A DNA stretch of 64,000 nt from Candidatus Micrarchaeota archaeon (GCA_021848065.1 JAJZNA010000032.1:35389-99388); one strand, 5' to 3'; counted from the first letter of the stretch, positions 6,022 through 49,670 are shown. A program made the numbers and translations. The notes: generated from the letters alone by a model not told the origin.

Positions 6022-6057
6022 CTCTGATTTACCCGAAGTAAAAGCTTATATACCTAG

Positions 6058-6798
6058 ATGTACGGTATATGCCTCATGAAATCCAGGAAAAAGACGAGGA
6101 GCAAGACCATACTGGGCTATTATTCGGATGTCTTCAAGCTTATGAAGAATCCATCAAGGTTTACCGCAACCAAGATGACTGGTGCAGAGGCCATTAAATA
6201 CTACCTGAAAAGCAGCGCAGTTCCGATCATAGCCTTGGTTATCGGGCTTCCGCTTGCTTCCCTGTTGGGAGGAAACATCTATGTAGGCAGCCTTGGTCCC
6301 GTCATGGCATTTGCAAACTGGCTAGGCAGCTTTGGAAATGTTGGAGCAGCCATAGGCCTGGCATTCACGATTCTTTTTGATTTTGTTGTATTTGTCCCAC
6401 TTGCCATGCTCCTGCTTGCAGGCTTGATCCATCTGCCCAGCAAACTTCTTGGCTTACTGGAAGGAAAATATTCGCATACTCTTTCAGCAGTTTCGTATTG
6501 GGCTTCTACAAGCATGTTCTTTTTATGGTGGCTGCCTCTTACGGCTTTGGTCTCGCAGGCCACATATCCACCACTTGGCGCTCTGCTTGCCCTATTGTTC
6601 GGCTCAGTATGGTTCCTTTCGTTGTTTTACAGCTACTATGTCTTTATAACAGCGCTTTCCAAGCAGCATAACGTGAGTACGCTAAAGGCGTTTGGCAGCA
6701 TGGTAGTTGTGTTCTTCGTGATTGGTGCGATATCCTTAATTGCCATAGCCGCTATTGCAGCATATCTCCTCGGAGTTCATGCATTACCTGGCAGGTGA
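6058..6798 (+). CDS. polytopic membrane protein (Yip1-domain-like pattern)
   Basis: 246-aa ORF with a short soluble N-terminus followed by about five hydrophobic helices. The Yip1-like assignment rests on overall pattern only. Confidence 0.45.
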   Translation: MYGICLMKSRKKTRSKTILGYYSDVFKLMKNPSRFTATKMTGAEAIKYYLKSSAVPIIALVIGLPLASLLGGNIYVGSLGPVMAFANWLGSFGNVGAAIGLAFTILFDFVVFVPLAMLLLAGLIHLPSKLLGLLEGKYSHTLSAVSYWASTSMFFLWWLPLTALVSQATYPPLGALLALLFGSVWFLSLFYSYYVFITALSKQHNVSTLKAFGSMVVVFFVIGAISLIAIAAIAAYLLGVHALPGR

Positions 6799-6944
6799 GT
6801 CTCAACCGGTATATAAGATCCTAGGCAACCTGTGGCCAGGCCTGTTCCGAACTGCCATGGCGCTCCTGAGGCAGTACGCATCCATGCATAAATAATAAAA
6901 GCTTAGTATGGCAAATATAGCGCGTATAACTATTGTGGCTTGGG

Positions 6945-9900
6945 ATGCACATTCGCTTGTATGCTTTTGCACTGTTGTTCCTCTTCGCTGTTGGGGTGAG
7001 CCATGCAGTTACGCTCCCTTCCAACATAATCACGTACGTGCCAATAAGCCTATCAAACTCCCAGGGTTCGGCATTTTCTTACAATTCGCAGGTTATGATT
7101 GCCGTAAACGCCCTGGCTTACAAGAAGCTTGAGTCGCCAAGCATGCAGAACCTCGAGTTCTTCTATGCGAACGGGAGCATAATCCCATCATGGATGCAGG
7201 GCAATTCCTCCCTCTCATCAAGCGGAGCCACGCAGAACGCCTTCAGCGTTGGCTACACATCAACCAATGTGCTCTTCTGGCTCAGGATAGCGCCTGCCAA
7301 CACCTTCCTGTCTCAAGGCTCCAGCAATACTGTCTATATGGGCTTTGCCTCCAACTCCACAAACCTTCTCAGCAACACCCTGACCGGCGAGGCTCCGCAA
7401 TTGAGCAGCGCATACGGCCAGTACGATGACGGTGCAAACGTCTTCAACTTCTACATGAATGCCAAGTCCGTGCCATCATTGATAGACCCCGGCAGCATAA
7501 CTGCATATCAGGGAGGGGTTGTGGGCAATTCGTCCCAGCTCTCCATCGTATACGACCCGCTAATGGGCAATGCCATAGATGTGACCCCGAATACTACGCT
7601 CAAGGACACATACTACTTCATGCACGCGCCTGGCATACCTTCAAACTTCGTGCTAACCCAATGGACCTACTCGTCCGGAGGCGCAACCGACCAGTGGCTT
7701 GGCGCCATCAACTCCAGCACAATGGATGGCTACAGCGCCATGCCTGGTGACGGGGGCAACGGATTCCTCTCGATATATGTTGACAGCTCAAGGTCCCTGA
7801 TCGGCAATGCCGGATACTCATATCCATACAATGCATGGATCTCATCTGGCCTGATCTTCACATCCTCGGGCTCCATGCATGCGTATGCCTCCAATGGCAT
7901 AGGCCTCCTTCCTGGTGGCAATATAATCAACGCCACATCCACCCTCTACTCGACATTCAATACCATCTTCTTTGCGCCTTTCGTGTCAGGTACATACAAA
8001 AGGCTTATGGGGCTGATACTGGCCAGGACGTACCCTCCTGGAGGTGTCATGGCTCAGGCGTCCTTCGGTACTGCTGTTTCAGCCCCGACCATATCCCTGT
8101 CCAACACCCTGAGCCCAGGCCTAGTCGAGCTGATTTCTGGGTCCCCATCCGACCATGCTCTGGTTAGCGCCACGTGCACCAGCGGGGACACCTGCGCCAT
8201 ATACAATTCTAGCGGTTCGGCCCTTGCCTCAGCAACCTCGATTGCCACCCTGCCCTACAACAGCCTTCCCCTGGGATACAGCACGCTGTATGCAAAAGAT
8301 ACAAGCGCTGGCTTAACTTCGGGCAATGTCCATGTCAGAAGGATATCCGTAAATGCAAGCATAACGATAACCCTATCCAACTCGCATTCTGCAGCCGTAG
8401 CTGCAAACACACCACTCTCAATTAGCATCAACGCCACCGCATACCCTGGCTACGTATCCAACTCGCTCAATAACACTGTGGTCTACTTCAAAAACGGCAC
8501 GGTCGCATACTCCTGGATAGAGGGAAACCTTCTCAACGAGCAACAGCAGGCAAACACGCTTTATACTTCTAATGACGTCCTGATATGGTTCAAGTCCCCA
8601 GGTTCAAGCGCATACCTGCCTGCTGATGCAGGCTCTGCAACTACAAACACCATCTACCTTGGTTTTGCTCCGCTAACCACGCGCCTGGTTGACGGCAATT
8701 ACATCGGCGAGGCCCCGCAGCTCAGCTGCTCTGATCCCACATTTCCTTCAACCTGCTCCCCTGTTGGAGGTGCTTCAAGCTACGGGCAGTATGACAATGG
8801 CAATAATGTATTCACATACTATGTAAACTTCGCAGGCGCTAGCTGCCCTGCAGGGTGGTCGTGCTCTGCAACCACCATCAGCAATTCGATATCGGTCCCT
8901 GCGGGAAGCTACGCAGTCACTACTGGGACCTACGGACAGAATGCAAGCCGGATTCTTGATTTCGAAGGCTATATACCTACGGCGGCAAATGCCAACAACG
9001 CGGGCGCCGGGTACTTCTCATCACCATACTACAACACCGGCGGCGAAGGGGATAACTGGGAAATAAACACTGGAAACGGCGACTGCAACAGCGGCTATGC
9101 CTGTGCGGAAACATGGACCACCTCCCCGAGCCAGAAGGGAGTGCTCCCAAGCACGTCCATCGGATATAGCGTCTGGTCCATATATCTTCCTTCATCGAGC
9201 AGCACCACGCTCTCCTCAAGGTACGGCGCACAAAACAGCCTTACGATACTGGGCACCAACAACGGCATACCAAACACCAAGCTGCCAATGGGCTTCTCCA
9301 ATAACCAGAACACCGGCCAGCCGACTCCACTGGGGCCCTTCAACTGGCTAAGGCTCAGGATATACCCTCCTTCAGGAGATATGCCAAGCGCATCTTTCAG
9401 CGCTGTCACAACTACGCTTTCAGTAAACATAAGCTCATCCACAACACTTCCAGCCACGCTGAACTCAGGCCAGGCCATCACATTCAATGCCATACCCTCC
9501 GGAGGAAGTGGGGTATATTCATCGTACAATTTCCTGGTCTACAACAGCGTGACCAATGCCGAGGTGGCTAATTACCTTACCCAGGAAACTGAAAACACTA
9601 TAATAAGCAATATCCCCTATGGGTTAAACCGTGCGTGCTCAATAGCCGTATCGCCTTCGGGCACATATGCCTATGTGTTGAATTATAATAGTGGAAATAT
9701 CGTGATCCTAGATACCGGCACCAACTCAATTACTGGCGCCATATCAAATGGCTTTTCATCTCCCAGGTCTGTTGCCTTTTCTCCTTCCGGAACATATGCG
9801 TACGTTACTAATTACGGGTCAAGCAACGTTGTAATAATAAACACCGCGACAAATTCTGTTACAGGCTCAATACCTGGCTTAAGCTATTCCTGGGGCGTTG

Positions 9901-33728: not shown

Positions 33729-35153
33729 TTATTTCCCTAGTGCCTTCTGCCCTAGTACCCTTATCTCATACCCCTTTCCTGCAATCTTCCTTATTCCCGA
33801 CTCAACTCCCCTGTCATTTGTTACGAACACCAATCCATATCCTGCCCCTCTTGCCTTCTCAATGCACTTGAGTATCTCCTCCTTCCTTGCATTTGTCTGC
33901 ACCTCGTATGCCTTTATGCTCCTCCTGTCCCACGCGCCCTTTCTCCTTGCCCTCTCCATCCCCACAACATCGAAGCTCTCCTTCTCCCTCCCTACGAACG
34001 CATACTCTCCCCTCTCCTGCAGCTCCTTTATCACCTTCTTCATGAGCATCCTGTGCGTCTCCGAGCCTGCATGCTCTCCCTGTTTCTCTATCATCCTATC
34101 GGGATCTACTGTTTCCAGCGCCCTTCCCGTGAGCCTGCCTCCCTTCAGGTATCCCTCGTTCATAAGCCTCTGCCTTATCGGCACTATTCCTGCGCCCCCG
34201 TACAGGGTCCTTGCACTCGTTATCCACTTCCTCTCCCTGCATATCCTCCCAGCCTCCTCTACATTCCCTGCGGCCATGTGCATTGCAAGCATGTACAGGT
34301 ATACGCTTACAGAAGGCACGTCCTCTCCTGCAAGCCTTGGCGCCTTTGCACCTGCATCATATCTCTTCCCTCCATCAGCCTCCTTCACGTCAATCCTTCC
34401 TGCCTTATCCTCCAGCTCCCTCCTCTCCTCCCTTCCTATGACATCTATCTCCACGTACGCCGGGTTCGGCCTCCCTGCCTGCACCGCCCTCTGGTCGAAC
34501 ATGAACGCGCTGCCTATCGGCATCCTGTAGAGTATGTCTTTCTCTATGCCAGACATGTTCAGCATCGCATGCACCCTGTGCTGCAGCGCAGGTTCATGGT
34601 ATCCGAGCACGAACTTGACTGCGGTATTGCCCACTATCGCATCCGGCACGTCCTGGAGCAGCTGCGTTGCCGCTATTATCCCGAATCCGTACTTCCTTCC
34701 CTCCCTGACGACCCTTGTTATGTTGGTCTCCTTCCCGTAGTAGTTTAGCAGCGCCTGGTACGCATCGTCCAGCGCGATGTACAGCCTTATCTCCCTGCTC
34801 TGCCTGAACTCTTCTATTATCCTCTGCACTATGGTGTAGGTCACCAGCTTCTTTTCCGCATCTGTAAGTTCATGCATGTCCACCACATTGCACCTCTCTT
34901 CATACCCCTTCCAGAACCCCTCCGGCTCATCCCCGAATATCTCCGAGGCCTGCCTGAGCTTGTTGGTTATGTACGTAAGCTGCAGCTTCGTCTCCTTGTA
35001 CCTCTCCTCCGGCATCTGCGCAAGCAGCACGCCGTGCAGCATCTCCATGTTCGGCTCCCTTCCCTGCGCGTATAATCCTGTCAACGTCTCCCTCACCTTC
35101 TGCGCCTGCATCTCCGTCAGGTTCAGCCCCATCTGCAGCAGCTCCGCCGCCAC
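33729..35153 (-). CDS. HerA/FtsK-VirB4-type ATPase, C-terminal part (Walker B, RecA-like core end, PD-(D/E)xK-like tail)
   Basis: Contains RLYIALDDAYQAL (Walker B-like) and REGRKYGFGIIAATQLLQDVP. The tail FDVVGME...IKAYEVQT resembles a D...E-x-K nuclease-like motif. It continues the upstream ORF after a frameshift. Confidence 0.6.
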   Translation of the reverse strand: MAAELLQMGLNLTEMQAQKVRETLTGLYAQGREPNMEMLHGVLLAQMPEERYKETKLQLTYITNKLRQASEIFGDEPEGFWKGYEERCNVVDMHELTDAEKKLVTYTIVQRIIEEFRQSREIRLYIALDDAYQALLNYYGKETNITRVVREGRKYGFGIIAATQLLQDVPDAIVGNTAVKFVLGYHEPALQHRVHAMLNMSGIEKDILYRMPIGSAFMFDQRAVQAGRPNPAYVEIDVIGREERRELEDKAGRIDVKEADGGKRYDAGAKAPRLAGEDVPSVSVYLYMLAMHMAAGNVEEAGRICRERKWITSARTLYGGAGIVPIRQRLMNEGYLKGGRLTGRALETVDPDRMIEKQGEHAGSETHRMLMKKVIKELQERGEYAFVGREKESFDVVGMERARRKGAWDRRSIKAYEVQTNARKEEILKCIEKARGAGYGLVFVTNDRGVESGIRKIAGKGYEIRVLGQKALGK

Positions 35154-35839
35154 CCCTGCCCTCCTCTCCCCTGCATCCCCCTTAGCGCAAACGGGTTTAT
35201 CCTCAGGTTCTTAGGCACGTTCCATGTGGTCGCTCCCATGTCCCCGTATATGCCCGACCAGTCCATTATCAGGAACGGTATCTTGAATTTCAGGTAAGCC
35301 CTCGTAAGCATGGTGGTTATCAGGTTCGACTTCCCCAGGCCGCTCTCCCCTATTATCATCATGTGCGGGTTCGGCTCTTCCTTTATCTGCAGGTCATATA
35401 CTCCTTTCGATCCGGCATTCACCACAATCGAAGGCTTCCTATCCTCTCCCGCGATGCCTATATTCTGCTCCGCGAAATTCACCGGGTGCGGGTATTCATA
35501 CCCTATCCTTATCCCGTTGTGCCTGTGCCTCTTTGCAGTATCCATCTGCCTTGCGTATGCGTATGCCACTACTACCGATATCGCCATCCTTTCCGTAAAA
35601 CTCATGTATGCCTTCTGCATCATCAGTATTGCAAATAGCGGGTATAGCATCTGCATCATGAAGAACCCGAAAGGATGCTCCCTTAGCCTTGGTACCTTCC
35701 CCCTTCCCCTGGCCACATATTTAAAGAACCCGTCCACAACCTTCTTTGGGCTCTGCGCCTGGTACTTTATTGCCAAACTGACCGCGAATAGCATCGCCAT
35801 GTATATTATGTAGAGCATTATGTCTAGCAGCAGGCCCAC
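35123..35839 (-). CDS. HerA/FtsK-VirB4-type ATPase, N-terminal part (TM helices + Walker A)
   Basis: Three or four TM helices, then MIIGESGLGKSNLI (Walker A). The frame is lost near the C5 run at 35177-35181 and continues in ORF 33729..35153. Confidence 0.6.
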   Translation of the reverse strand: MGLLLDIMLYIIYMAMLFAVSLAIKYQAQSPKKVVDGFFKYVARGRGKVPRLREHPFGFFMMQMLYPLFAILMMQKAYMSFTERMAISVVVAYAYARQMDTAKRHRHNGIRIGYEYPHPVNFAEQNIGIAGEDRKPSIVVNAGSKGVYDLQIKEEPNPHMMIIGESGLGKSNLITTMLTRAYLKFKIPFLIMDWSGIYGDMGATTWNVPKNLRINPFALRGMQGRGGQGWRRSCCRWG

Positions 35840-36007
35840 TTTTCATACCCAGGAATAGTAAGCTGGAAAAGTATTTATCGGTTGCAGTTTGAAGACATTA
35901 CACTATAATTTTGGTTTTGCAACTGCTTTGTAAAGGTTTATAATAACAGATAATGGATCATATATGTGTTAGGGTCTAAATAAAGTAAAATTATACCGTT
36001 GGGTCGT

Positions 36008-37078
36008 ATGATGTCAGATCAAGACGAACATATAAAAATACTTAAACAAAGATATGCTAAGGGAGAAATAACCAAAAAACAGTACATGGAAATAAAGGAA
36101 GATCTTAAAGAAGAGAAAGAAAGTATTCCATATTCAAAAAGATATAACTCTGGAGGACATGGGCTCAGAAATCTAATCGTATTAATCATAATACTTGGCA
36201 TCATTTTCTTTCTTTATCAGATTGCTCAAGCCGAAGCTTTTAGAAATGTACAAATTACTTTATCAGGCGCATCTATGGGTAATGTCGGTTTAACTAGTGC
36301 AGATTTGAATCTAGATCTGAATTTTTATAATCCCCTATCCATTCCAGCAACTCTATCCAGTATTTCCTATTCCGTGTATGCAAATAATAACTATCTTGGC
36401 AGCGGAAGTATAAATGGACCAATAAGTATAGCCCCACATAATACTGCTACAGAGCCAACTACCGTGACTATCTCCTATCTTGGTGCAGTTCAGAGTGTGT
36501 GGGCTACGTTAACTAGCGGGCAAGTTCAGTTAACTGTAAGTGGCGACGCTGTGATAAACACAATTTTAGGGCCCATAACTATCCCTTTTAATCAATCCAT
36601 TTATTCTTCTAATTCCAGTTTATCTGTAAGCTCTACTAGTTATCCTACAACTCAATCAACACAGTATACTAGCTATTACACGACAAGCATACCAACCACA
36701 ACTGCATATTATGGTTCGCAATGTTTACCCCAATCTGGTTATACTTGCTCCAATCCTTTTCTATCAAGTTATAGCGGAGAGCTAAATGTAACGCTTGGTG
36801 AAAATACTGGAAATAACTGGTATGATGTTGGTTTAGTCTGGGTTCCTTCAGGTACAGATCTTTCCAACGTGCAGAACCTATTCAACTCTCCGACTGCCAG
36901 ATTTTATAATTATATGTATAGTGGTTCCACATATTATTTCTTATTACCTGTTACTGGTCAGGGTGCCGGCCCTGGAACCATTTATAATGGAACAATATGG
37001 GCTCAGTACAGTGTTTCTCCTGGGGGAGGTACTTATTACACCGAAATTGCATCTGCATACCTAACAGCAACTCCTTAA
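36008..37078 (+). CDS. SHOCT-like N-terminal motif + TM + LEA_2/WHy-like domain protein with Ser/Thr/Tyr-rich C-terminus
   Basis: LKQRYAKGEITKKQYMEIKEDL (SHOCT-like), TM helix LIVLIIILGIIFFLY, then LDLNFYNPLSIPATLSSISYSVYANNNYLGSG (LEA_2-like pattern). Confidence 0.45.
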   Translation: MMSDQDEHIKILKQRYAKGEITKKQYMEIKEDLKEEKESIPYSKRYNSGGHGLRNLIVLIIILGIIFFLYQIAQAEAFRNVQITLSGASMGNVGLTSADLNLDLNFYNPLSIPATLSSISYSVYANNNYLGSGSINGPISIAPHNTATEPTTVTISYLGAVQSVWATLTSGQVQLTVSGDAVINTILGPITIPFNQSIYSSNSSLSVSSTSYPTTQSTQYTSYYTTSIPTTTAYYGSQCLPQSGYTCSNPFLSSYSGELNVTLGENTGNNWYDVGLVWVPSGTDLSNVQNLFNSPTARFYNYMYSGSTYYFLLPVTGQGAGPGTIYNGTIWAQYSVSPGGGTYYTEIASAYLTATP

Positions 37079-37160: not shown

Positions 37161-37232
37161 GCAAGTTTGCGGCTTTGTTTATAATTACTGTTGATAAAAC
37201 TATTTATAAACATACAAGGCAATTTATAAACA
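37161..37232. repeat. left repeat cluster: GCAAGTTTGCGGCTTTGTTTATAA plus two TTTATAAACA decamers 20 nt apart
   Basis: Decamers at 37203-37212 and 37223-37232, with an inverted copy inside 37176-37184. Confidence 0.6.
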
Positions 37233-37241
37233 GGTGTAAAT

Positions 37242-37466
37242 ATGGTTCTTGAGCAGAATAGAGACGGGCAAATTTGCCCTAATTGCAAGAAAGGCAAACT
37301 ACATCAAATTTCATTCAGGGAACACGTGAAAGACATTGGAGACGCAGGTATCGTAGAAGGAGAATCTGATAGACATTACCGATGTGATTACTGTAAAGAA
37401 GAAATAAATGATGCTGGTATCGGTAGGGGTTTTGGTGTCGGTGCATCTACAAAGCCTAAGAAATAA
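37242..37466 (+). CDS. zinc-ribbon protein, 74 aa
   Basis: CPNC ... CDYC pairs. A TATA (TTTATAAACA) lies about 20 nt upstream of the ATG. The 3' end overlaps the transposase stop by 11 nt. Confidence 0.5.
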   Translation: MVLEQNRDGQICPNCKKGKLHQISFREHVKDIGDAGIVEGESDRHYRCDYCKEEINDAGIGRGFGVGASTKPKK

Positions 37467-37935
37467 ATTCTGTTTTTACCCCTAACTCGTTCACCGCAGA
37501 GTTAAGCACAACTATATTGTGGCAGAGTATCTTTAGGAGCAATTCGTTTATCTGTGCTGTCCTTGTCTTGCTCTTTAGCATATCGTTGAACTTAGCCTTT
37601 ACCATGAAGAAGGTTGTCTCTACGTTAGACCTCTTGTGGTAATGCTCCATAAACTCCTCTCGGCACATCTGAAAGTAGTAGAACATCTTGTTCCATACCC
37701 TACCACCCCTGCTATGCTGTGAGCTATTTGCCTTGAACGGCACATAGGCTATTGCTCCCATCTCCGCAACTGCGTCAAGATTGTCTCTTGATAGGTATGC
37801 CTTGTCTCCGCTTACCTCTCTTATAGTAAATCCTGCGTCCTTAGTAGCCTTGACAAGAGGTATGAACTGCGGACTATCACCACCCATATTGACCTCAACT
37901 GCGGTAATCACATTAGTCTTGACGCCAGTTATCAC
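37456..37935 (-). CDS. transposase C-terminal DDE fragment
   Basis: Contains TGVKTNVITAVEV..., SGDKAYLS and YHKRSNVETTFFMVKAKF. Its frame continues upstream as EYCREKHNTKQQHEWLKVHV until a TGA. Confidence 0.6.
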   Translation of the reverse strand: MITGVKTNVITAVEVNMGGDSPQFIPLVKATKDAGFTIREVSGDKAYLSRDNLDAVAEMGAIAYVPFKANSSQHSRGGRVWNKMFYYFQMCREEFMEHYHKRSNVETTFFMVKAKFNDMLKSKTRTAQINELLLKILCHNIVVLNSAVNELGVKTEFIS

Positions 37936-37943
37936 ATGAACCT

Positions 37944-38636
37944 TTAGCCATTCGTGCTGTTGCTTTGTATTGTGCTTCTCTCTGCAATACTCTCATCTAC
38001 CGCAAAATCAATCTCTACGCTCCGCGGGGCAAGAGAGGACTGGGTAACAAGTTCGCTAAGAATAGGCGTTATATCCTCTCGTTCCATGAACTTGCCAACA
38101 AGCGAGTAGCAAGGCACGTTATTGACATATCCCTTGTCCTTCGCAACTCTAAGGTCGGTCATAAATCGCCTTAGACTGAACTGGCTAAAGACCTTGAGAG
38201 TAGAAGCAAATAAGAGGTCTCTTACTGGCATCTGCGGTCTGCCCCTGCCTTCTCTGTGGTTCTCTGGGACGTTCTCAATAAGTCCCTGCAATAGCTCCAT
38301 GAAGCGTTCCTTCTCTGTTATCTGGCTAAGGTTGTATGCGCTCCAATTCTGGGGTATCTGTATCTTCTTGACCTGCGTTATAGTAGTAGAGCCGTCAGGG
38401 TTTCTTTGTTTAGTTATCATGAACTCTACGCTGAATATGTGCTTGCACTTCATACCACGTTCTACATAATCAGGGCAGGTGCATCCTGAGTTGCCTATAC
38501 CTAAGACCACTTCATAGGTCTTACTGCAACTCTGCGAAGGCACTATCCACGTATTGCCGTGAAGCCTTACGTTCCCCTTCTCTACTATCGCCTTATCCTT
38601 TTGCTTTCGGACTTGTAGTTGTTCTCGTGTCTGCAT
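37944..38636 (-). CDS. transposase N-terminal fragment with SWIM zinc finger
   Basis: CTCPDYVERGMKCKHIF fits CxCx(n)CxH. The ORF ends ...DFAVDESIAERSTIQSNSTNG*. Confidence 0.6.
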   Translation of the reverse strand: MQTREQLQVRKQKDKAIVEKGNVRLHGNTWIVPSQSCSKTYEVVLGIGNSGCTCPDYVERGMKCKHIFSVEFMITKQRNPDGSTTITQVKKIQIPQNWSAYNLSQITEKERFMELLQGLIENVPENHREGRGRPQMPVRDLLFASTLKVFSQFSLRRFMTDLRVAKDKGYVNNVPCYSLVGKFMEREDITPILSELVTQSSLAPRSVEIDFAVDESIAERSTIQSNSTNG

Positions 38637-41348: not shown

Positions 41349-41410
41349 TTTATAAACAGAATCCTGAATTTATAAACAAAAGGCATTTTGTAAACAAAGC
41401 CCAAGTTTGC
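41349..41410. repeat. right repeat cluster: two TTTATAAACA decamers 20 nt apart, a TTTGTAAACA variant, then AAAGCCCAAGTTTGC (inverted partner of the left cluster)
   Basis: Decamers at 41349-41358 and 41369-41378, variant at 41387-41396. The reverse complement of 41388-41410 aligns with 37161-37184 at about 20 of 23-24 positions, counted by eye. Confidence 0.6.
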
Positions 41411-41528: not shown

Positions 41529-42053
41529 TTAGGATTTGGTGATTGTGATAGGTATACTACCACAAATTTTATTGCTTATCCCTATAATTTTAATGCAAAC
41601 ATTCATAGATGTATTCATATTGGTAGTAGTTCTATTGACACTAAATCCACTACACTGAAATGAAGTTATATTTTTTGAAAATAGGGGGCTTGTTTGTGCA
41701 TGAAAATTAGGACTAACTTCAACATTATAAATGGGGCTTGTTACTATCTGTGTCGAATTTGTTCTTTGAATCGGAGTTGGATAAATTAGATTAGTGCTAA
41801 ATTCACATGTGCTTTGGGAGAAATTTATTGAATATTCTTGATTAGATGGATTCATTACATAAAATGGAAACGCTAAATTTGATGAATTGCTAGGGGTTTG
41901 AAGTCCTTGAGTAATAATATAAGGTAATGACGCTTCAAATAACTGACTTTGTAGGGCGTAATTTTGCCAAGCATAATAAGCTGCAACTATTACCGCTAAA
42001 ATTGCTATACTAGTGGTTATAACCCATTTTTTATCCTTATACCATTTATCCAT
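41529..42053 (-). CDS. membrane-anchored protein of unknown function (last gene of the island operon)
   Basis: N-terminal TM helix WVITTSIAILAVIVAAYYAW, then an Asn/Ser/Thr-rich presumably extracellular region. Starts 8 nt after the RM gene stop. Confidence 0.5.
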   Translation of the reverse strand: MDKWYKDKKWVITTSIAILAVIVAAYYAWQNYALQSQLFEASLPYIITQGLQTPSNSSNLAFPFYVMNPSNQEYSINFSQSTCEFSTNLIYPTPIQRTNSTQIVTSPIYNVEVSPNFHAQTSPLFSKNITSFQCSGFSVNRTTTNMNTSMNVCIKIIGISNKICGSIPITITKS

Positions 42054-42061
42054 AATGTCAT

Positions 42062-44917
42062 CTACCTTAGGCTCTCTTCAATTACCTTCTTTTCCTCTTC
42101 TGATATTCCATAGAGTTTATAGATTAGATTATCAATCTGTGAATCTGCTATTTTTATTTTTTCCTCAATCCTTTCCTTTCCACTTGTCTGTTTCCCGTCC
42201 ATCTGTAATACTTCCTTATTCCAATCTAGGATCTTTTCGACCAATTGGGCTATTTCGCCAGCCATTGCCTTTTCTATTCTATTCTGAGGAACGATAATGG
42301 GAAGTTCTTCTAGCGTTTTAACATAAATTCTTAGGTAATCTTGCTGAATTGAAATTGTTGAATTAGAAAGCAAAAACCAAGTCAGTTTACTATTTAATAG
42401 CCCAATCAAATATTTATCATCGCTAACAATAAAATTTGCTGGTGCATTAAGAAAGAATTTATTTGGATCAAATGTAAATGTTGGTTTAATCATAATACCT
42501 TGGAGAACAATCTTAGGTTTATCAAATTCTTTATAATAATCAGTTACATCTTGAATTTCAAACCATTTATATGAACCAGGTTTGCGCCCTACTTTTTCAT
42601 CTCCAGATTTAGGCGTTAATTTTTCTTTAAATTGTGAAAGATGATCTTTTATAGATGGCAAAGTATCAATATTTATTCCTCTATTAGTAAAAATGAGGAA
42701 TAGTTCTGGGTCTTTAATATAATAGCGACCTATATCGCTACCCCTAAGGAAAGGTTTGATAATTTCTGAAGACTTTTTATCTCTAGCAATAATATGATCC
42801 CTTGTAGTGGAATTTATAACGAATGCTTCATTTAGGCCAGTTGTTATGCCACGATAAATTTTTCCGTCTACATATTGCCTTAGCGGAATGCCTTTAGCTC
42901 TGAGTTTTTGGAACAAGGTGTGTGCGTCCTTATGTTGAATATTCCATTCATTTTCTCCTAGCTCTTTTTGATTTAGGAAAAAGGAATTTTTATCTATATC
43001 TACATAACCCTTAAGGTCACCAAATTTTAACGTTTCCACCATACATATTCTAATTTTTGGGTTTGGTTTTGCAATTTTTCTTATTATTATAATTGATGGG
43101 TATGTAGTAGCATCTTTAAATACTTTCAAATCCCCAAAATCGATAAATTCTTCTATCCAGAATTTATTAATGAATTGCCTTAGATTTTTTCCATAGCCTG
43201 CCCTAAGCCATTTGTTTGATACAATCATTCCAAAATACCCGCCATCTTTAAGCATTTTTAATTCTCGTTCAAAGAAATAAACAAAAAGATCTGCAGTTCC
43301 TTGAAAAACTTCGTAATTTGCTTCCAAATATGGTTTAATATTAGTAAGTTCTTCCTGCCTGACATAAGGTGGATTTCCAAGAATTACATCGAATCCTCCT
43401 TCCCGCATTATCCCTTCAAATTCTTCGCTCCACGTGAAAGCCTTGCTACCTGCCACGTTGGGATCATCTATCAGAGAATTCCCATTTTTAATGTTCTGTT
43501 GCAATATTGGCAACCTTCTCTTCTTCTCAGCGACCTTGAGCAATAAGTTCAACTGTGCTATATCCACCGCTTGCCTGTCTAAATCAACACCAAAGATGTT
43601 ATCATTGAGTATGCTAAGTTTAGTTGAGTATGTAGTTCCAGTACCGCTCATGTCGAGTTTGTTCTGGTTATAGCCCTCTTTTTTGCTGTAATACTCATTC
43701 AGTACATCGAAAGTCTTTATCAGGAACGAGCCAGAACCGCAGGCAGGATCTAGAACCTTGATTTTTGAAACATCAACCCTCTTGTTCTTTATCAACTCTC
43801 CAACAGTATTCCTTACAATGTAATCCACGATATAGCTGGGCGTATAGTATATGCCCTCTTCTTTCCTCTTTGCCTTGCTTTCTGTTAGTTTCGTTCTCTT
43901 CTCGGTCTTCTTTAGAATGTGCCCTAGATACTGTTCATAGATGTTGCCTAGAACATCGGCGTCTATCAATGAGAAGTCGTATTGTATCGAGCCATCTTCT
44001 GTGGCGTATAACCCATCCAATATGCGACTTAGAACGTTATCGCTTATATCTACCTGATCGCATAAGTGCTTGCTGAATATCTTGCTGTTATAGGTCTCGT
44101 CAAAGTGGGTAAAAAGGTCTCTGAGTTTGCTTACAAGCATGCCTTTTTTATTCTCTTTCCACTGCCTCAGGGTAGACAATAGGTCATAAGGTTCAAGTTC
44201 TCTATCCTCACAGTTCCTAATAAAGATAAGGCGGTCAAAGAGCCGTTGTATTGCCTCGTCTAATTCCTCCTCGGTTAAGTTTTTGCTCTTGTTCAGACTG
44301 TAAACATCTTTTGAGAGAATCGCCCTGAAGTTTGTAAAGTCCAAAAGTAACTGTTCTGTTATCGGTCTCTTTCTTGACTTTGTGCTATACTTTTCATTCA
44401 ATTTTCCTTGTATGAAGGCTTCTTTTGATAGCAGATAAACGCTTTCAAAATCACTCAGTAGACTATCTATCCATATTGCAAACCTAAAACTACTTTGAGA
44501 ACTCGCCTTTGCCCATGCATCGTAAACGATTATGCCCTTGAAGTTGGTTAGAATTGCCCAGTTGCATCCTTTGTAATAGGCGTAATTGATCGCCTGCTCT
44601 GCATAGGTAACTTGCCTGCCCTTTACCATCCGAGAACCTTCTAAATCCTCGGCCAGCCCTTTTGCCTCAAGAAAGAACTTTGGTATGCCATCTATCCTGA
44701 ACCCATAATCAACTCGCTTGCCAGAGATGTTCTCCTCTTTTGATACTTCATCCGAATCTTCTGTGTTCCATCCGAGTATCCTGAATAAAGGTAGTATAAA
44801 GTCGTTTTTTGTAGCCTCTTCATTGTACCTTTTGCCCTTCTCACGATTATACTTCTCGATGAGTTTTGTTATCTCAGTTTTCATTTGTTCCTTATCCATA
44901 AAAACACTAACGCTCAA
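42062..44917 (-). CDS. Type IIG restriction-modification enzyme (PD-(D/E)xK nuclease + gamma-class N6-adenine methyltransferase + target-recognition region)
   Basis: N-terminal HsdR_N-like VDYGFRIDGIPKFFLEAKGL, motif I VLDPACGSGSFL and motif IV ILGNPPYV, followed by about 400 aa of C-terminal region. 951 aa in total. Confidence 0.8.
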   Translation of the reverse strand: MSVSVFMDKEQMKTEITKLIEKYNREKGKRYNEEATKNDFILPLFRILGWNTEDSDEVSKEENISGKRVDYGFRIDGIPKFFLEAKGLAEDLEGSRMVKGRQVTYAEQAINYAYYKGCNWAILTNFKGIIVYDAWAKASSQSSFRFAIWIDSLLSDFESVYLLSKEAFIQGKLNEKYSTKSRKRPITEQLLLDFTNFRAILSKDVYSLNKSKNLTEEELDEAIQRLFDRLIFIRNCEDRELEPYDLLSTLRQWKENKKGMLVSKLRDLFTHFDETYNSKIFSKHLCDQVDISDNVLSRILDGLYATEDGSIQYDFSLIDADVLGNIYEQYLGHILKKTEKRTKLTESKAKRKEEGIYYTPSYIVDYIVRNTVGELIKNKRVDVSKIKVLDPACGSGSFLIKTFDVLNEYYSKKEGYNQNKLDMSGTGTTYSTKLSILNDNIFGVDLDRQAVDIAQLNLLLKVAEKKRRLPILQQNIKNGNSLIDDPNVAGSKAFTWSEEFEGIMREGGFDVILGNPPYVRQEELTNIKPYLEANYEVFQGTADLFVYFFERELKMLKDGGYFGMIVSNKWLRAGYGKNLRQFINKFWIEEFIDFGDLKVFKDATTYPSIIIIRKIAKPNPKIRICMVETLKFGDLKGYVDIDKNSFFLNQKELGENEWNIQHKDAHTLFQKLRAKGIPLRQYVDGKIYRGITTGLNEAFVINSTTRDHIIARDKKSSEIIKPFLRGSDIGRYYIKDPELFLIFTNRGINIDTLPSIKDHLSQFKEKLTPKSGDEKVGRKPGSYKWFEIQDVTDYYKEFDKPKIVLQGIMIKPTFTFDPNKFFLNAPANFIVSDDKYLIGLLNSKLTWFLLSNSTISIQQDYLRIYVKTLEELPIIVPQNRIEKAMAGEIAQLVEKILDWNKEVLQMDGKQTSGKERIEEKIKIADSQIDNLIYKLYGISEEEKKVIEESLR

Positions 44918-44926
44918 TTTATCTCT

Positions 44927-45571
44927 TCATATATCATGTTTTTCATTCCAGCACCAGTAATCGTATAGGATGGGAACTATACTCGCTTTTTTACATAACT
45001 CAAATACTGCATTCTGAATTATCCGATACAGATCAGGACTGTTTATATAACTCATTGTGGGATTAGTTGGAATATTTATCCTATATTTTACTTCTGTAAG
45101 CTTATTGATTACATTTTTTATTGGTTTTAATGAGAATTCATCAAATGGGACATTAAGAAATGGTACAACATTTTCGTTGCTTAGAAACGTAGATTCATTC
45201 AGCGTCTTTATTAGTACATTAACTATTTTACTTGCCTGTCCAAAAATTATTCGTTTATTCGAATCATTTATTTGTGAATTCCAATAATCGATGAAGTCAT
45301 CGATCCATTCAAAAAGATGTGCATCGAAATCTTCTTTAGCGGTTATGCTGTTCAACACTGCAATTATTTCATCTATATTCTTGTTAGCCCATTCTCGATA
45401 GATTGATGACGGTGGTCTATTTAGTTTATGGAATCCTCTAACAATGTTTGACTGAATTGAACTTTTAATTATCGCCTCTTTCGCAAGGTCCTTTTTATCT
45501 ATTGTTTTTTTATAGTTTTTTAATATGCCAACTGCGTCTTCGACGTTTTCAAATATATGGATGTCTTGCAT
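44927..45571 (-). CDS. orphan 214-aa protein directly upstream of the RM gene
   Basis: Clean AT-rich ORF whose start codon abuts the stop of the 73-aa ORF. No motif recognised. Confidence 0.5.
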   Translation of the reverse strand: MQDIHIFENVEDAVGILKNYKKTIDKKDLAKEAIIKSSIQSNIVRGFHKLNRPPSSIYREWANKNIDEIIAVLNSITAKEDFDAHLFEWIDDFIDYWNSQINDSNKRIIFGQASKIVNVLIKTLNESTFLSNENVVPFLNVPFDEFSLKPIKNVINKLTEVKYRINIPTNPTMSYINSPDLYRIIQNAVFELCKKASIVPILYDYWCWNEKHDI

Positions 45572-45793
45572 TTACTTACCTAGTTTGTTCATAATCTTGC
45601 CATAAACCTTGATTCTCTTGCCTTCTCTTATGTGTTTCTGCATATACCACAGAGTTGACTTATTTATGCCTAACCTCTTGCGGTCTTGCGGTGTTAGGGT
45701 TAGCACTCTGTTGCGAATTGTATTATCCTTTAGTCTTATCCTGACTTCTGTCCTATATTCGACTTCATGTAAGGATACTCTTAAATCATCCAT
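45572..45793 (-). CDS. small 73-aa protein with HTH-like segment
   Basis: Sequence MDDLRVSLHEVEYRTEV...LTPQDRKRLGINKSTLWYMQKHIREGK. The ATG at 45793 overlaps the helicase stop (ATGGATGA). The ORF-track start at 45838 lies inside the helicase gene. Confidence 0.45.
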   Translation of the reverse strand: MDDLRVSLHEVEYRTEVRIRLKDNTIRNRVLTLTPQDRKRLGINKSTLWYMQKHIREGKRIKVYGKIMNKLGK

Positions 45794-48461
45794 CCCACCC
45801 AACCTCCTGCTTGACCAGCACGCACAGAATGCTCTCATCTCCTTTCTTTTTCAGCTCTTTTATGAATTGCTGCGGGTCCTTCCTGTACTCCAGGAACTTC
45901 CCGATGTGCCTAAGCACAGTATCATACTGCCCTTTATCCGGCTGCTTAACTTCAAGCCTGCAGCCCATCTTCCCGGTGTTTATGTTGCCTCTCAGGGCTA
46001 TGAAGCCTATCGCGGTCCTTATGCTGCCCTCATCTACCTTGTTTGCAATGGAATAAAGCTTCCTGTAAGCTGCCAGCTGCCTCCTGTGCTCAGAGGCCTT
46101 CCCATCGGTCCTGTCGGTCTTCCAGTCAACTATCAGATATCCCTCCCTGGTCTTGTAGACTGCATCGAGCTTGGCCTTGAACTCCATGCCTTCAGGGGCT
46201 CCGGGCACAAGGTCGCAAAGTGGAAGGACTATGGAGTCCTCCGCGCCTATCTGCCTAGCCTCACTAGAAGACCTTATCTCCAGGTCCAGCCTCCTTATGT
46301 TCTCAAGGTACGGCTTCTCATCAGAAGGTATGGTGGACTCGTCAAGGGTCTTGTTGAACATGCCCTCAGCCATGGAGTGCGCCTTGTTGCCCATGTTCAA
46401 AGCGCTGCTCTCCTCGCGCATGCACAGTATGTTCCTCTTGAGGAACTCGAAAGGGTCGCATAGGCCCTCTATTAGGGTATAGGAAAGCCTGTCGGCATGC
46501 TTGAAATAGTCGTATATGCGCTCGCGCAGCCACGGGTCCCTGGAGCCTATGAGTTTGCGTGCCTCATCGTACCTTCCGTTGACGAACATGCTGTAGGCCT
46601 GGTCGAACTTCCTTGAGATTGGCTCCGGCTCGTCCTCCATGGTCTCGTAGCTCTCAACTCCGTACTCCCCGGCTGCATACTCCTGGGCAGACTTGCTGTC
46701 CGCTATTATAGTGAGGCGATCCCTGGCCCTTGTGAACGCTACGAAGTCTACGCGCAGCTGCTCCTCGCCGAGCTCCTCCCTTATGTCTATCCCCTTCATG
46801 CCCTTTATCAGCCCGTAGACAACTGCGTCAACGAAGCTGAAGCTGTCCTTAGCCTTCCTTGGAACGTATATCACGTTGTCGAACTCGAGGCCCTTGGACT
46901 TGTGCACTGTGGTGAGGACGAGGTCCTCGTCCCTTCCGATGGGCTCGTAGCTCTCCTCGGTCACCTGCAGGTAGTTGAATAGGTCGGAGATCTGCGGGGC
47001 TTCAACAACATCGAAGAACTCGGATATGTTGTCCCTTATGGCCGAGGCCGTTATGTAGTAGTCCTTGCCTATGGATACGCTTATCGGTATTATCACTTCG
47101 TTGAAGATGCTTGCCAGCCCGGCCCTTGAGAAGGCAAGGGTGCGAAGCACCATGAACCTGGGGACTAGCCTGTGCAGCGTGGCGTCATCAAGCTTCCTAT
47201 CGCCATGAAGCTTAGAGACCTCGAAGGCCTCCTTGAGGCTCACCCCGGCGAAGGGGGTGAAGAGGGCATTGACTATGAGGCCATGGTCATCGTAGAGGAT
47301 GCCCTTAAGGAAGGCGATTATTGTGTTCTTGGCCTCTTGCGAAGTCGCATTGCTTATGGTCGTTGAGTATTTTACGTTCTTGGAGTCGAGCATGCGCGAT
47401 ATCCCAAGTATCTGGCCATTGGACCTTGTTATTATCGCAGTCCTGCCCTTTCCGCTTAGCGAGATTGCCTTCTTCACGGCAAGGCTGGGCTGCTGGTCCC
47501 TGTTCACCCCTATTATCTCAACATGGCCCTGCGCATCCCTGTCCGCAGAGAAACTGGCAAGGTCCTGCGCATGGTCCAGGTGCCCGGTCCTTGACTTGAA
47601 TGCCTCAGCGGCGTACTTTATTATCTGCCTAGAGCTCCTGTAGTTCTTGCCAAGCACCTCCCTTTCCATGTTTGGCAGCTTCTCCATCTTCGCGAAGTTC
47701 CTGATCGAGCCTCCCTGGAACCCGAATATCGACTGCTTCCTGTCTCCTACAAGGAAGAGCTCCTCCCCGCTCTCTAGCGCTATGTCCGCCTCTATCTCAT
47801 TGACGTCCTGGAGCTCGTCCACAAGCACGAACCTGAACCTCTTCCTATCCCTAAGCCTCATGAACCTGAGCAGCATGTCATTGTAGTCTATGTATCCCGG
47901 CTTCTTGGATTTTTCATAATCCTGGAAGGCATCAACGAAATAGTCCGCAAATTTAAGCTGCTCATCCTGCGATATGTTAGTTATCCCGTTCTCAATGTAT
48001 GCCTGCTCTATGTAAGGCCTGCACCTGGCAAGGTCTATCGCCTCGGGGGTTATGCCGTAGCTCTTTAGGTAGCGTATGGCGTTCTCCACCTTTGGCACTA
48101 TGTCCCCTATTATGTAAGCCAGAGAGTAGTTGAGCGCCTTGTTGGCCTCGAAGCTCTTGAATATCGAGTACCTTATCGCGTTGTTGCCAAGCACCTGGTG
48201 GCTTCCCTCGCTCTCCTCCAAAAAGGCGAGCGCGTAGCTGTGGAATGTGTGTATGCTTAGGTCATGCAGCTTTGCATCAAGCCCTTCCTTCTTGGCAAGC
48301 TCGCGTATCCTCTGCCTCATCTCGTTGGCTGCCTTCTCCGTGAAGGTTATGCAGAGTATGTCCTTTGGCTGTGCCCCTTCCTTAAGCAGCTCTATGACGC
48401 GCCTGGCAAGTGTGGTAGTCTTCCCTGTCCCGGGGTTTGCGAGTATAAGCCTGTTTGCCAT
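45786..48461 (-). CDS. UvrD/PcrA-family SF1 helicase fused to a RecB-type PD-(D/E)xK nuclease domain
   Basis: Helicase motifs ANPGTGKTTT, TFTEKAANEM, VDELQDVN, VGDRKQSIFGFQGG, KNYRSS, TVHKSKGLEFDNV and AFTRARDRL. Nuclease motifs KLDAVY...YLIVDWKTD...RRQLAAYRKLY. Confidence 0.85.
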   Translation of the reverse strand: MANRLILANPGTGKTTTLARRVIELLKEGAQPKDILCITFTEKAANEMRQRIRELAKKEGLDAKLHDLSIHTFHSYALAFLEESEGSHQVLGNNAIRYSIFKSFEANKALNYSLAYIIGDIVPKVENAIRYLKSYGITPEAIDLARCRPYIEQAYIENGITNISQDEQLKFADYFVDAFQDYEKSKKPGYIDYNDMLLRFMRLRDRKRFRFVLVDELQDVNEIEADIALESGEELFLVGDRKQSIFGFQGGSIRNFAKMEKLPNMEREVLGKNYRSSRQIIKYAAEAFKSRTGHLDHAQDLASFSADRDAQGHVEIIGVNRDQQPSLAVKKAISLSGKGRTAIITRSNGQILGISRMLDSKNVKYSTTISNATSQEAKNTIIAFLKGILYDDHGLIVNALFTPFAGVSLKEAFEVSKLHGDRKLDDATLHRLVPRFMVLRTLAFSRAGLASIFNEVIIPISVSIGKDYYITASAIRDNISEFFDVVEAPQISDLFNYLQVTEESYEPIGRDEDLVLTTVHKSKGLEFDNVIYVPRKAKDSFSFVDAVVYGLIKGMKGIDIREELGEEQLRVDFVAFTRARDRLTIIADSKSAQEYAAGEYGVESYETMEDEPEPISRKFDQAYSMFVNGRYDEARKLIGSRDPWLRERIYDYFKHADRLSYTLIEGLCDPFEFLKRNILCMREESSALNMGNKAHSMAEGMFNKTLDESTIPSDEKPYLENIRRLDLEIRSSSEARQIGAEDSIVLPLCDLVPGAPEGMEFKAKLDAVYKTREGYLIVDWKTDRTDGKASEHRRQLAAYRKLYSIANKVDEGSIRTAIGFIALRGNINTGKMGCRLEVKQPDKGQYDTVLRHIGKFLEYRKDPQQFIKELKKKGDESILCVLVKQEVGWDG

Positions 48462-48473
48462 CCCATCACGCGA

Positions 48474-49067
48474 TTACAACAGCGCTAACTTTCCAGCGTC
48501 AGTTATATTGTAATCGTCATCCAGGTACCCCCCGTCTTTGAGCTCCTTTAAGTGCTGGTATATCATCCCCCTGGTCCTGTGCATCTCCTTGGAAATCTGC
48601 CCTATGGTCTTATCCTTCCTGCTTGCAAGCCTTGTGAGGAGGTCCCTCTTCGTAGACCCTATGTTGTATGAGAGCTTGGGCAGGCTTATGAGCTCGTTGC
48701 TGTGCGTGCTGTTCGTGACTATCCTCTGCACCCTGTCTGGCCTTGCATAAGAGCCGAAGAGGACCGCATTTGTGAGTACCTTATTGGCTCCGGCCACGCT
48801 CACTATTATCCTATTTCCGGCGGCCTTGTTGCTGTCTATGAGCTCCACCGTCGCCTTTGCTATTGCGTGTATGTCATCCTTGGGCACTTTCACAACCTCG
48901 AACTGCATTGCGTTCTGGAATACCTTCTTGACAGCCTTTATGTTCTCCTTCACCTTCCCGTCCCCACTGTCCACGAGAAGCACTATCTTCTTGGGAGAGT
49001 ACTTCAGTGCAGCCGGCAGGAATGGTTCGGGGCTGTAGAAGGTTGCTATCAGCGTAACGTTGTCCAT
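48474..49067 (-). CDS. CARF-like Rossmann domain + winged-helix regulator (Csa3-like)
   Basis: Alternating strand/helix N-terminal half (VTLIATFYSPEP, KIVLLVDSGD, RIIVSVAGANKVLTNAVLFG). C-terminal wHTH is TKRDLLTRLASRKDKTIGQISKEMHRTRGMIYQHLKELKDGGYL. Confidence 0.55.
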   Translation of the reverse strand: MDNVTLIATFYSPEPFLPAALKYSPKKIVLLVDSGDGKVKENIKAVKKVFQNAMQFEVVKVPKDDIHAIAKATVELIDSNKAAGNRIIVSVAGANKVLTNAVLFGSYARPDRVQRIVTNSTHSNELISLPKLSYNIGSTKRDLLTRLASRKDKTIGQISKEMHRTRGMIYQHLKELKDGGYLDDDYNITDAGKLALL

Positions 49068-49178
49068 TACTGAAATAAGTATGCAGTAATTATTTTATAT
49101 ACTTATGTATAGGAAAAAGGTATACACTTATATATTTTGCCTTAATAGTCAATACTTGCGATTGACTGAGGGGTATAG

Positions 49179-49670
49179 ATGGAAAAGATAACCGAGGACA
49201 TATACATAGGGGGCATAACCACAAAGCGTGACGTGGAGGTGCACGGCATAAGGCACGTGATAAACCTTGTAGGCAGGAAGGTCTCGTATAGGTCGAAGAT
49301 GTTCCCCTTGATGGATTCGGGCTTCAACAACGACCCCCTGCAGTTCCTCAGGATACTGCAGGACATAGACAAGCACGTCAAGAGGAGGAGGGTTCCCGTA
49401 TTCATACACTGCGCGATGGGCATGTCCAGGAGCCCTGTAGTGTGTGCACTTTACCTGTATTATGACCAGAGGTTTGGCACCTTCGAGGATGCGTTATCTT
49501 ATGTGCTGGAGATGAGCAGGGTCGCCAAGCCCAATCCCTCCTTGGTGGACTTCGTAAGGTTCCAGGTTGTGCCGCTTGCAGTCAAGAAGCGGAAGAGGAG
49601 TGCCTCAAGGAAGGCGATGCCACGCGGTCAGGGTCCGGCTGCAAAGAGGAATTCGAAAGGGAAGGGGTAG
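49179..49670 (+). CDS. Cys-based dual-specificity/tyrosine protein phosphatase with basic C-terminal tail
   Basis: P-loop VFIHCAMGMSRSPVV (HCx5R(S/T)). The tail is Lys/Arg-rich. Confidence 0.75.
   Translation: MEKITEDIYIGGITTKRDVEVHGIRHVINLVGRKVSYRSKMFPLMDSGFNNDPLQFLRILQDIDKHVKRRRVPVFIHCAMGMSRSPVVCALYLYYDQRFGTFEDALSYVLEMSRVAKPNPSLVDFVRFQVVPLAVKKRKRSASRKAMPRGQGPAAKRNSKGKG

Follow-up and report, generated by a model that had tools for sequence, protein, structure and literature searches.

A conserved CARF-regulator/helicase-nuclease unit and a foreign restriction cassette in a Micrarchaeota gene cluster

Sensors with a CARF domain are mostly understood as receivers of cyclic oligoadenylates from type III CRISPR systems. 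Among described proteins, Csa3a and Csa3b of the Sulfolobales (PDB 2WTE, 6WXQ) are the closest in structure to the regulator considered in this study, with which they share a match to TIGR01884 and a two-domain build of a CARF domain followed by a domain of the winged helix-turn-helix type (wHTH). Csa3 proteins are reported to bind palindromic promoter sites, and DNA repair genes are activated by Csa3a (PMC8844856). Here we describe a cluster of six open reading frames (ORFs) at positions 41529-49067 of a 64,000-nt stretch of Candidatus Micrarchaeota archaeon (GCA_021848065.1 JAJZNA010000032.1:35389-99388), in which a Csa3-like regulator of 197 aa heads the gene of a helicase-nuclease and a set of genes that includes a restriction-modification enzyme. 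The whole stretch is called the window throughout, and positions are counted from its first nucleotide. Unlike Csa3, this regulator fails the curated cutoff of the family and lacks a CRISPR-cas context, its partners are a helicase-nuclease and restriction enzymes, and its CARF motifs 1 and 2 appear to differ.

The concept is the same as that of the wHTH-WYL regulators BrxR/CapW, ligand-sensing regulators at the head of defence islands, where a small-molecule-sensing wHTH protein precedes variable defence genes. In the units described here, by contrast, the sensor is a CARF domain, the hosts are DPANN and acidophilic archaea, and the conserved partner is a helicase-nuclease. This partner resembles AddA and RecB (of AddAB, RecBCD, and AdnAB) in combining a superfamily 1 (SF1) UvrD-like motor with a RecB-family nuclease that bears the D...DxK...QxxxY motif, but it is much shorter and has no adjacent gene for an AddB, RecC, or RecD partner. 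A survey of CARF and WYL domains published in 2014 discussed WYL domains and described RtcR-like CARF proteins beside restriction-modification systems (PMC4012209). In the searchable literature, outside whose coverage the 2020 CARF census falls, no description was found of the CARF/helicase-nuclease/restriction arrangement or of its operator.

The cluster consists of a native two-gene unit, the CARF regulator and the helicase-nuclease, and a foreign low-GC block of ~4.3 kb, whose junction with it coincides exactly with the stop codon of the helicase. There, to within a few bases, the GC content drops from ~0.53 to ~0.33. The GC content at third codon positions (GC3) is 0.70 in the CARF gene, 0.72 in the helicase gene, and 0.73 in a divergent dual-specificity phosphatase (DSPc) gene, as opposed to 0.43, 0.28, 0.37, and 0.22 in the 73-aa, 214-aa, Type IIG, and 174-aa ORFs of the foreign block. 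Gene order is identical on independent ENA assemblies from the same organism. The sharp break at the helicase stop, found by GC and GC3, had been overlooked in an earlier model-generated reading of the window made before any database search (hereafter the sequence-only reading), which had proposed either a composite defence island under one promoter or a single multi-component system. The former is favoured by the GC3 break, a truncated casposase gene, cargo genes that do not co-occur elsewhere, a single operator-like element at the head of the cluster, and the lack of an internal terminator-like site.

We therefore prefer, with a probability of roughly 0.6, a reading in which a native CARF/helicase-nuclease unit has received a foreign restriction cassette, in which one regulated promoter probably serves the whole, and in which the unit recurs in other archaea with restriction modules that can take one another's place. 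What is interesting here is smaller than had been claimed and more general: a conserved CARF-regulator/helicase-nuclease unit that has a candidate operator and offers restriction cassettes a place to dock. Time and again, operons of the helicase-nuclease and restriction modules are headed by a Csa3-like regulator, with no CRISPR locus in sight. If the proposed regulation holds, CARF signalling would extend to innate restriction-based defence in poorly studied archaea, and the locus would offer a directly testable protein-DNA pair together with the question of its ligand. It would also provide an example of how foreign restriction cassettes, casposon scar included, are wired into a host-controlled unit.

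The regulator, its candidate operator, and the helicase-nuclease

The regulator gene (48474-49067, minus strand) has native composition, and its product matches the PADLOC CARF3 model PDLC01849 with full-length coverage (E 3e-51). The CasR and Csa3 models also match, although the NCBIfam Csa3 model TIGR01884 gives 53.7 bits, below its curated cutoff of 60.2. A Pfam HTH_5 match at residues 138-182 (1.6e-5) lies above its cutoff, and in the AlphaFold2 (AF2) model, which was built with 27 homologues and has a mean confidence (pLDDT) of 92.3, three helices and a hairpin are formed at residues 138-195. Foldseek searches with this model returned the Csa3 structures 2WTE, 6WXQ, and 6W11 at the top, followed by other CARF proteins, with a probability of 1.00. 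Sequence identity to the Csa3 structures is ~15%, and a sequence search of the PDB with the CARF protein recovered only the HTH. The N-terminal CARF (Rossmann-like) fold and the wHTH domain are confirmed at the level of the predicted structure. The sequence-only reading had called the protein a CARF-like sensor with a wHTH domain and had named a structure prediction unlike CARF as the outcome that would speak against it; given the CARF3 match and the agreement of the predicted structure with Csa3 2WTE/6WXQ, this call stands.

The CARF motifs were compared with motif 1 (Phi-G-F-N/D-x-z-F) and motif 2 (G96-x-R98) of Csa3 (PMC8844856) in an alignment made by eye, not a structural one. In the motif 1 region the family reads L-I-A-T-F-Y, with T-F-Y where Csa3 has G-F-N/D. 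Motif 2, which follows strand 4 and corresponds by position to G96-x-R98, is GGx[RK] in the relatives and AGANK in the clade of the window (48782-48793, CARF residues 92-95). In Csa3, G96-x-R98 is essential for the binding of cyclic tetraadenylate (cA4), which the G96A mutation abolishes (PMC8844856). The ligand of the regulator may be other than cA4, or cA4 may be bound weakly by the clade of the window. In agreement with the sequence-only reading, no CRISPR array is present anywhere in the 64 kb, and neither is a tandem repeat. The further statement of that reading that no cas gene is visible has to be amended for a fragment of a cas1-solo gene, the only cas-related sequence found in the window, for which no full cas-gene census was run. 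No cas genes lie beside the CARF gene in the loci of relatives, and no relatives of the CARF protein were found among viral contigs.

The intergenic region between the CARF gene and the divergent DSPc gene (49179-49670, plus strand; Pfam DSPc) is common to both and carries a predicted operator, a 21-bp palindrome at 49106-49126, 38 nt upstream of the CARF start codon. Its sequence is TGTATAGGAAAAAGGTATACA, with the pattern TGTmTA-N9-TAkACA, and it can be read as TGTATACC-TTTTT-CCTATACA. This pattern has one match in the 64 kb versus 0.10 expected from shuffles. CARF orthologues have the palindrome upstream of them at the corresponding place in the relatives' loci L089, L091, L092, L094/L095, and L096, with one mismatch in L093, and before an AAA-CARF-helicase unit in L040. 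Its half-sites vary in a compensatory way (TGTATAG/CTATACA in one locus, TGTCTAT/ATAGACA in another), and of the 11 matches found in the fetched loci, 1.5 Mb in all, 9 are placed just upstream of a CARF gene or a CARF-containing unit. A relaxed search for a second operator inside the cluster returned chance-level matches only. Since Csa3 proteins bind palindromic promoter sites (PMC8844856), the palindrome would be the binding site of the regulator itself, through which it may control both its own gene and the downstream unit. The palindrome sits four bases 5' of a TATA-box-like element, TATATAAAA (49093-49101, minus strand), which is conserved in the alignment of upstream regions. Judging by standard archaeal promoter geometry this element would be the TATA box of the promoter, and its position at -34 to -26 from the CARF ATG would therefore yield a nearly leaderless transcript.

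Downstream of this region all six minus-strand ORFs are present where the sequence-only reading had placed them, head to tail and tightly packed. A gap of 12 nt separates the CARF gene from the helicase gene, the helicase gene and the 73-aa ORF overlap by ATGGATGA, and the start of the 214-aa gene directly abuts the stop of the 73-aa ORF. The Type IIG gene and the 174-aa ORF are each preceded by a short gap, the widest in the cluster being 27 nt. This gap lies before the Type IIG gene: the ORF proposed for it at 44917-42062 exists, but its start is more likely the ATG at 44899 because hidden Markov models (HMMs) and a 60%-identical homologue align from residue 7-8, and the gap is therefore 27 nt rather than the 9 nt given before. 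Partial Shine-Dalgarno (SD)-like sequences precede the helicase, 73-aa, and 174-aa ORFs, where gaps are <=12 nt; the 214-aa gene is preceded by a weak match and the Type IIG start by none. A bacterial-type promoter/terminator scan, used solely for the absence of minus-strand hairpin-T terminators, found none in the cluster, and the coding strand has no T-run >5. Packing and terminator absence fit one transcription unit as far as the DNA can be read, although tight gene packing alone defines no system. The foreign block would most likely be transcribed by read-through from the CARF promoter, because no promoter, operator, or terminator can be recognised within it and its genes follow their neighbours at 0-27 nt.

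The second native gene (45786-48461, minus strand) encodes an 891-aa protein with an SF1 UvrD-type helicase and a RecB-type PD-(D/E)xK nuclease. Its Pfam matches to UvrD-helicase (2e-44), UvrD_C, and PDDEXK_1 bear out the helicase-nuclease assignment of the sequence-only reading, and Walker A, DExQ, D766, D779-x-K781, and Q795...Y799 are invariant in 22 orthologues. The best NCBIfam matches were 'RecB-like helicase', recB, and addA, all far below their cutoffs; with such scores and no partner gene adjacent, membership in AddAB/RecBCD was rejected. The top PADLOC matches were GajB models, but these reflect the generic UvrD core only. GajB is not known to have a nuclease domain, and GajB chains in the PDB (~495 aa) match only the first ~50 residues of the 891-aa protein. 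Gabija was likewise rejected, with no GajA/OLD match among the six proteins or the annotated neighbours.

CARF-headed units in related archaea

Orthologues of the helicase are widespread in DPANN, Thermoplasmata, and Thaumarchaeota. The 128 nearest neighbours in 38 loci that lack a CARF gene are ordinary metabolic or translation-related (housekeeping) genes, so that the helicase alone is not a defence-island gene. In a phylogenetically scattered subset of the helicase loci, however, a CARF-wHTH orthologue lies upstream on the same strand, and these CARF-linked helicases are found at no fewer than five distinct positions of the helicase tree. CARF and helicase genes stand directly side by side in L040 (Micrarchaeota), L092, and L094/L095 (Marsarchaeota), and probably also in L049, where the contig ends inside the helicase gene. 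In other loci the pair is interrupted or followed by restriction-type genes. GmrSD stands between CARF and helicase in L089 and L020, followed by an Eco57I-type methyltransferase in the former and by an OLD-family nuclease and a Type IIG enzyme in the latter, while L016 has McrBC in between and HNH and HsdR after, and L017 has HsdM/HsdS after the pair. In L088 an unannotated 263-aa gene separates the pair, a PIN-domain gene follows, and methyltransferase and Mrr genes lie ~5.7 kb downstream. Two further CARF orthologues stand apart from this helicase: that of L096 heads a methyltransferase-MvaI/BcnI-methyltransferase operon, and that of L093 lies beside an Eco57I-like enzyme and a PLD-helicase.

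Restriction genes track the CARF gene, not the helicase. They were present in 6 of 8 CARF-linked versus 3 of 38 CARF-less helicase loci (Fisher p = 2e-4) in a set whose seeds came from CARF loci. The bare pair in Marsarchaeota fits an ancestral two-gene operon that received cargo. The idea of a ligand-sensing regulator that controls nucleases, put forward in the sequence-only reading, thereby gains comparative support: CARF-wHTH orthologues head helicase-nuclease and/or restriction operons in several archaeal lineages. Conservation of the neighbourhood, which the same reading had named as a check, was seen, among the six genes, for the CARF-helicase pair. The 73-aa, 214-aa, and 174-aa proteins have no homologue in any of the 44 other helicase loci of full length, and in the loci examined elsewhere neither these three nor the Type IIG enzyme are ever found together with the helicase or with one another.

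These observations can be arranged into a possible mechanism. A dimer of the regulator would bind the palindrome; a ligand of nucleotide type, lodged in the CARF pocket, would alter this binding and so set the level of the helicase-nuclease and of whichever restriction cargo the unit holds. The Type IIG enzyme would, as is established for its family, methylate host DNA and cut unmodified DNA on its own. The helicase-nuclease would then act on the DNA ends so produced, processing or degrading them in the way known for RecBCD/AddAB following restriction.

The strongest alternative to this arrangement is a repair operon with an incidental neighbour, in which the CARF-wHTH protein regulates only a housekeeping helicase-nuclease for double-strand-break repair, while the arrival of the restriction cassette was a matter of chance, its expression is independent, and nothing links it to the pair in function or regulation. 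This account draws on the wide distribution of the helicase orthologues, mostly among housekeeping genes, on the pair bare of restriction cargo in L094/L095, on the foreign composition of the cassette, and on the activation of DNA repair genes by Csa3a (PMC8844856). It is harder to reconcile with the recurrence of restriction modules in CARF-headed units of unrelated lineages and their rarity near CARF-less helicases, with the L096 orthologue that directly heads a restriction-modification operon without a helicase, and with a cassette whose gaps of 0-27 nt hold no terminator-like site. We consider it unlikely on balance, though worth keeping in mind.

Several points nevertheless weigh against the reading of a native regulated unit with foreign restriction cargo. 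A CARF gene is lacking for the majority of helicase orthologues, the helicase itself may serve repair and not defence, and the seeding of the restriction-gene count from CARF loci favours that class. The CARF protein of L091 is 86% identical to that of the window, but the helicase nearby, encoded on the opposite strand, shares just 48% identity with its counterpart, so that in L091 the histories of regulator and helicase are not congruent. If the alignment is right, AGANK in the clade of the window places a Gly-to-Ala change at the G96 position of Csa3. Finally, the promoter scan covered bacterial-type signals only, and archaeal promoters could hide in the A+T-rich foreign DNA.

A more far-reaching proposal is that the CARF3 subfamily serves as the sensor of a CRISPR-independent, nucleotide-gated control layer in DPANN, Micrarchaeota, Marsarchaeota, and related archaea, which switches on the helicase-nuclease plus whichever restriction module is present through the palindromic operator. 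The signal for such a layer could come from a synthase or from nucleotides derived from infection. We offer this proposal tentatively and hold it to be rather doubtful.

The loci of relatives also showed recurrent neighbours of other kinds. DSPc homologues adjoin the CARF gene in L089 and L091 too and are in this sense conserved neighbours. In L016, L089, L091, and L094 the gene upstream of and divergent from CARF encodes an AAA ATPase with ankyrin repeats, and L091 and L094 have an HTH_3-CBS protein downstream of the helicase, which in L040 lies upstream of the whole unit; of these recurrent neighbours the window keeps only the DSPc phosphatase. The helicase of L091 (GCA_027362985.1) ends a seven-gene run (Ank-AAA ... 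DSPc ... helicase) that diverges from the same operator-bearing intergenic region. In L020, a metagenome-assembled genome (MAG) of Diapherotrites, a gene with OLD-family ATPase and TOPRIM domains directly follows the nuclease-bearing helicase (3506-8340), an arrangement that looks like the Gabija pairing in reversed order inside a CARF-headed unit.

The casposase remnant and the other genes of the foreign block

The 73-aa ORF (45572-45793, minus strand), the first of the foreign block, is a 3'-terminal remnant of a family-2 casposase (Cas1-solo) gene. An exhaustive HMMER search with this ORF matched 201 clusters at E<=1e-3, among which the matches of ~400 aa are Cas_Cas1 proteins that align in their last ~55 residues. 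One of these, P0222, matches the casposase structure of Methanosarcina mazei (PDB 6OPM) over its full length (9e-79) and the 73-aa ORF in BLASTP (4e-17), and the ORF itself aligns to residues 360-411 of 6OPM, the C-terminal HTH region. This domain is crucial for casposase activity (PMC6977970). A tblastn search with five casposases found its sole homology in the window at 45575-45787, ending at the helicase stop, and of the casposase gene no more than the ~57-69 codons at the end are retained, which correspond to residues ~339-400 in a protein of ~400. The start codon of the ORF and the SD-like GGAGGT before it sit in native helicase sequence, which makes the ORF a chimeric relic that may or may not be translated. 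Of the two orphans in the sequence-only reading this one is lost to the casposase, while the 214-aa protein remains without a family match, though it belongs to a conserved family of DPANN type.

Dozens of metagenomic "proteins" of 55-120 aa (P0171-P0210) are also 3'-terminal casposase fragments with unrelated N-termini. Because in-frame casposase sequence stands behind unrelated N-termini in them, many of these short relatives are gene remnants too, which suggests that archaeal genomes commonly bear a casposase tail as a scar.

An intact casposon was rejected for the window, in which the casposase is truncated, no other casposase piece is found in 64 kb, and terminal repeats, a target duplication, and a polymerase were not found. 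In a search for inverted and direct repeats at the borders of the low-GC block, scores were at shuffle level and no target duplication appeared; nor was a family B polymerase domain found in the annotated neighbours. Because inverted repeats, target duplication, and polymerase were all not found, we regard the remnant as a scar. The low-GC block might still be thought of as a live mobile element, a casposon or a derivative with restriction-modification genes, for which the helicase gene's 3' end is the target. Insertion at the extreme 3' ends of host genes is known for casposons (PMC6977970), the junction here is marked precisely by sequence derived from a casposase, and an insertion sequence (IS) transposase and further low-GC DNA are next door at 36-41 kb. 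With only the last ~57-69 casposase codons left and no other piece in 64 kb, no terminal inverted repeat or target duplication at the borders, and no polymerase B domain in the annotated neighbours, such an element is improbable.

A functional tie between a CARF-wHTH regulator and a casposon gene has been described in Methanosarcina mazei, where MM_0565, a Csa3-like CARF+wHTH protein, induces the casposon cas1-solo gene (PMC7465815). Set side by side by description, the two cases differ in that MM_0565 belongs to a type I-B CRISPR locus and its target, reached in trans, is an intact casposon, whereas here a casposase remnant stands within a CARF-headed cluster. We take the casposase scar in a CARF-headed unit to be a curious coincidence worth noting, nothing more. 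Under the more far-reaching proposal made above, the relic would hint at casposon-type elements as deliverers of cargo, an idea that would echo the control of cas1-solo by a CARF-wHTH protein.

The 214-aa protein (44927-45571, minus strand) represents a small conserved DPANN-type family. No family match was found for it, or for the 174-aa protein, in Pfam, PADLOC, NCBIfam, or PHROGs. It has 17 homologues (52-66% identity), mostly on Nanoarchaeota-type contigs, each alone beside unrelated genes such as those of SRP54 or an FtsX/ABC transporter, and no relatives among viral contigs. The AF2 model is helical with a mediocre pLDDT of 65.6, and a fold search of the PDB with this model gave no match (best E 1.1). 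A PDDEXK_1 match in the homologue P0138 (L087) does not speak for a nuclease fold, as it stems from an N-terminal chimera. That protein begins with ~60 residues from the N-terminus of a PD-(D/E)xK protein in place of the one typical of the family, and the chimera would be either a recombination product or an assembly artefact.

The next gene (42062-44917, minus strand, with the likely true start at 44899) encodes an intact Type IIG restriction-modification enzyme of 951 aa, as the sequence-only reading had recognised. It matches PADLOC REase_MTase_IIG over the full-length model (2.5e-129) and carries the Pfam domains Eco57I, N6_Mtase, TaqI_C, HSDR_N, and MmeI_N. The motifs D70...E84-A-K86, DPACGSGSF, and NPPY are readable in the translation, and by these features the protein is a complete enzyme with an N-terminal PD-(D/E)xK nuclease, a gamma-type N6A methyltransferase, and a TaqI_C target-recognition domain. 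Beside five Type IIG relatives (33-60% identity) there are no homologues of the 73-aa, 214-aa, or 174-aa proteins and no shared neighbours. Assignment to BREX was rejected, with PglX models at 71-131 bits versus cutoffs of 400-900 and no PglZ or Brx domain in the neighbours.

The last gene of the block (41529-42053, minus strand) is a 174-aa singleton, alone in its 90% cluster. The membrane anchor attributed to it earlier is seen as a single N-terminal hydrophobic segment, the highest 19-residue hydropathy window starting at residue 10 with a mean of 1.98. The protein also has six N-x-S/T sequons for N-glycosylation and four Cys.

A six-part machine is unsupported because the foreign genes do not travel together. 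The second option of the sequence-only reading, a single integrated defence system in which all six proteins cooperate, could appeal to the tight packing on one strand, with overlapping or abutting stops and starts, and to nuclease and helicase domains as plausible partners, yet it is very improbable in view of the compositional break at the helicase stop, a 73-aa ORF that is a gene fragment, four cargo proteins (73-aa, 214-aa, 174-aa, and Type IIG) never seen together elsewhere, one of which is a singleton, and the self-contained nature of Type IIG enzymes.

Flanking low-GC region

The low-GC region beside the cluster holds an IS-type transposase split into two ORFs at 37456-38636 (minus strand), one of 230 aa with a SWIM-like zinc finger and one of 159 aa with DDE_Tnp_1, of intermediate GC content (0.44-0.47). 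Copies of TTTATAAACA lie at 37171-37232 and 41349-41401, two at each place. A 14-nt inverted pair, GGCTTTGTTTATAA / TTGTAAACAAAGCC, brackets a 4.2-kb segment with the IS and several unannotated plus-strand ORFs; these sequences could represent the ends of another mobile element, but the match is within chance for the region. Farther out, at 33729-35839 (minus strand), a DUF87/HerA-FtsK-like ATPase is apparently divided between two ORFs, of 238 aa and 474 aa, whose overlap spans 35123-35153. An ATPase for conjugation or packaging that has suffered a frameshift may be present here, which hints that a larger element has integrated. Between this ATPase and the IS, at 35999-37078 (plus strand), a 359-aa protein with a GC3 of 0.27, SHOCT and LEA_2 domains, one membrane segment, and a Ser/Thr/Tyr-rich tail is probably a horizontally acquired surface protein.

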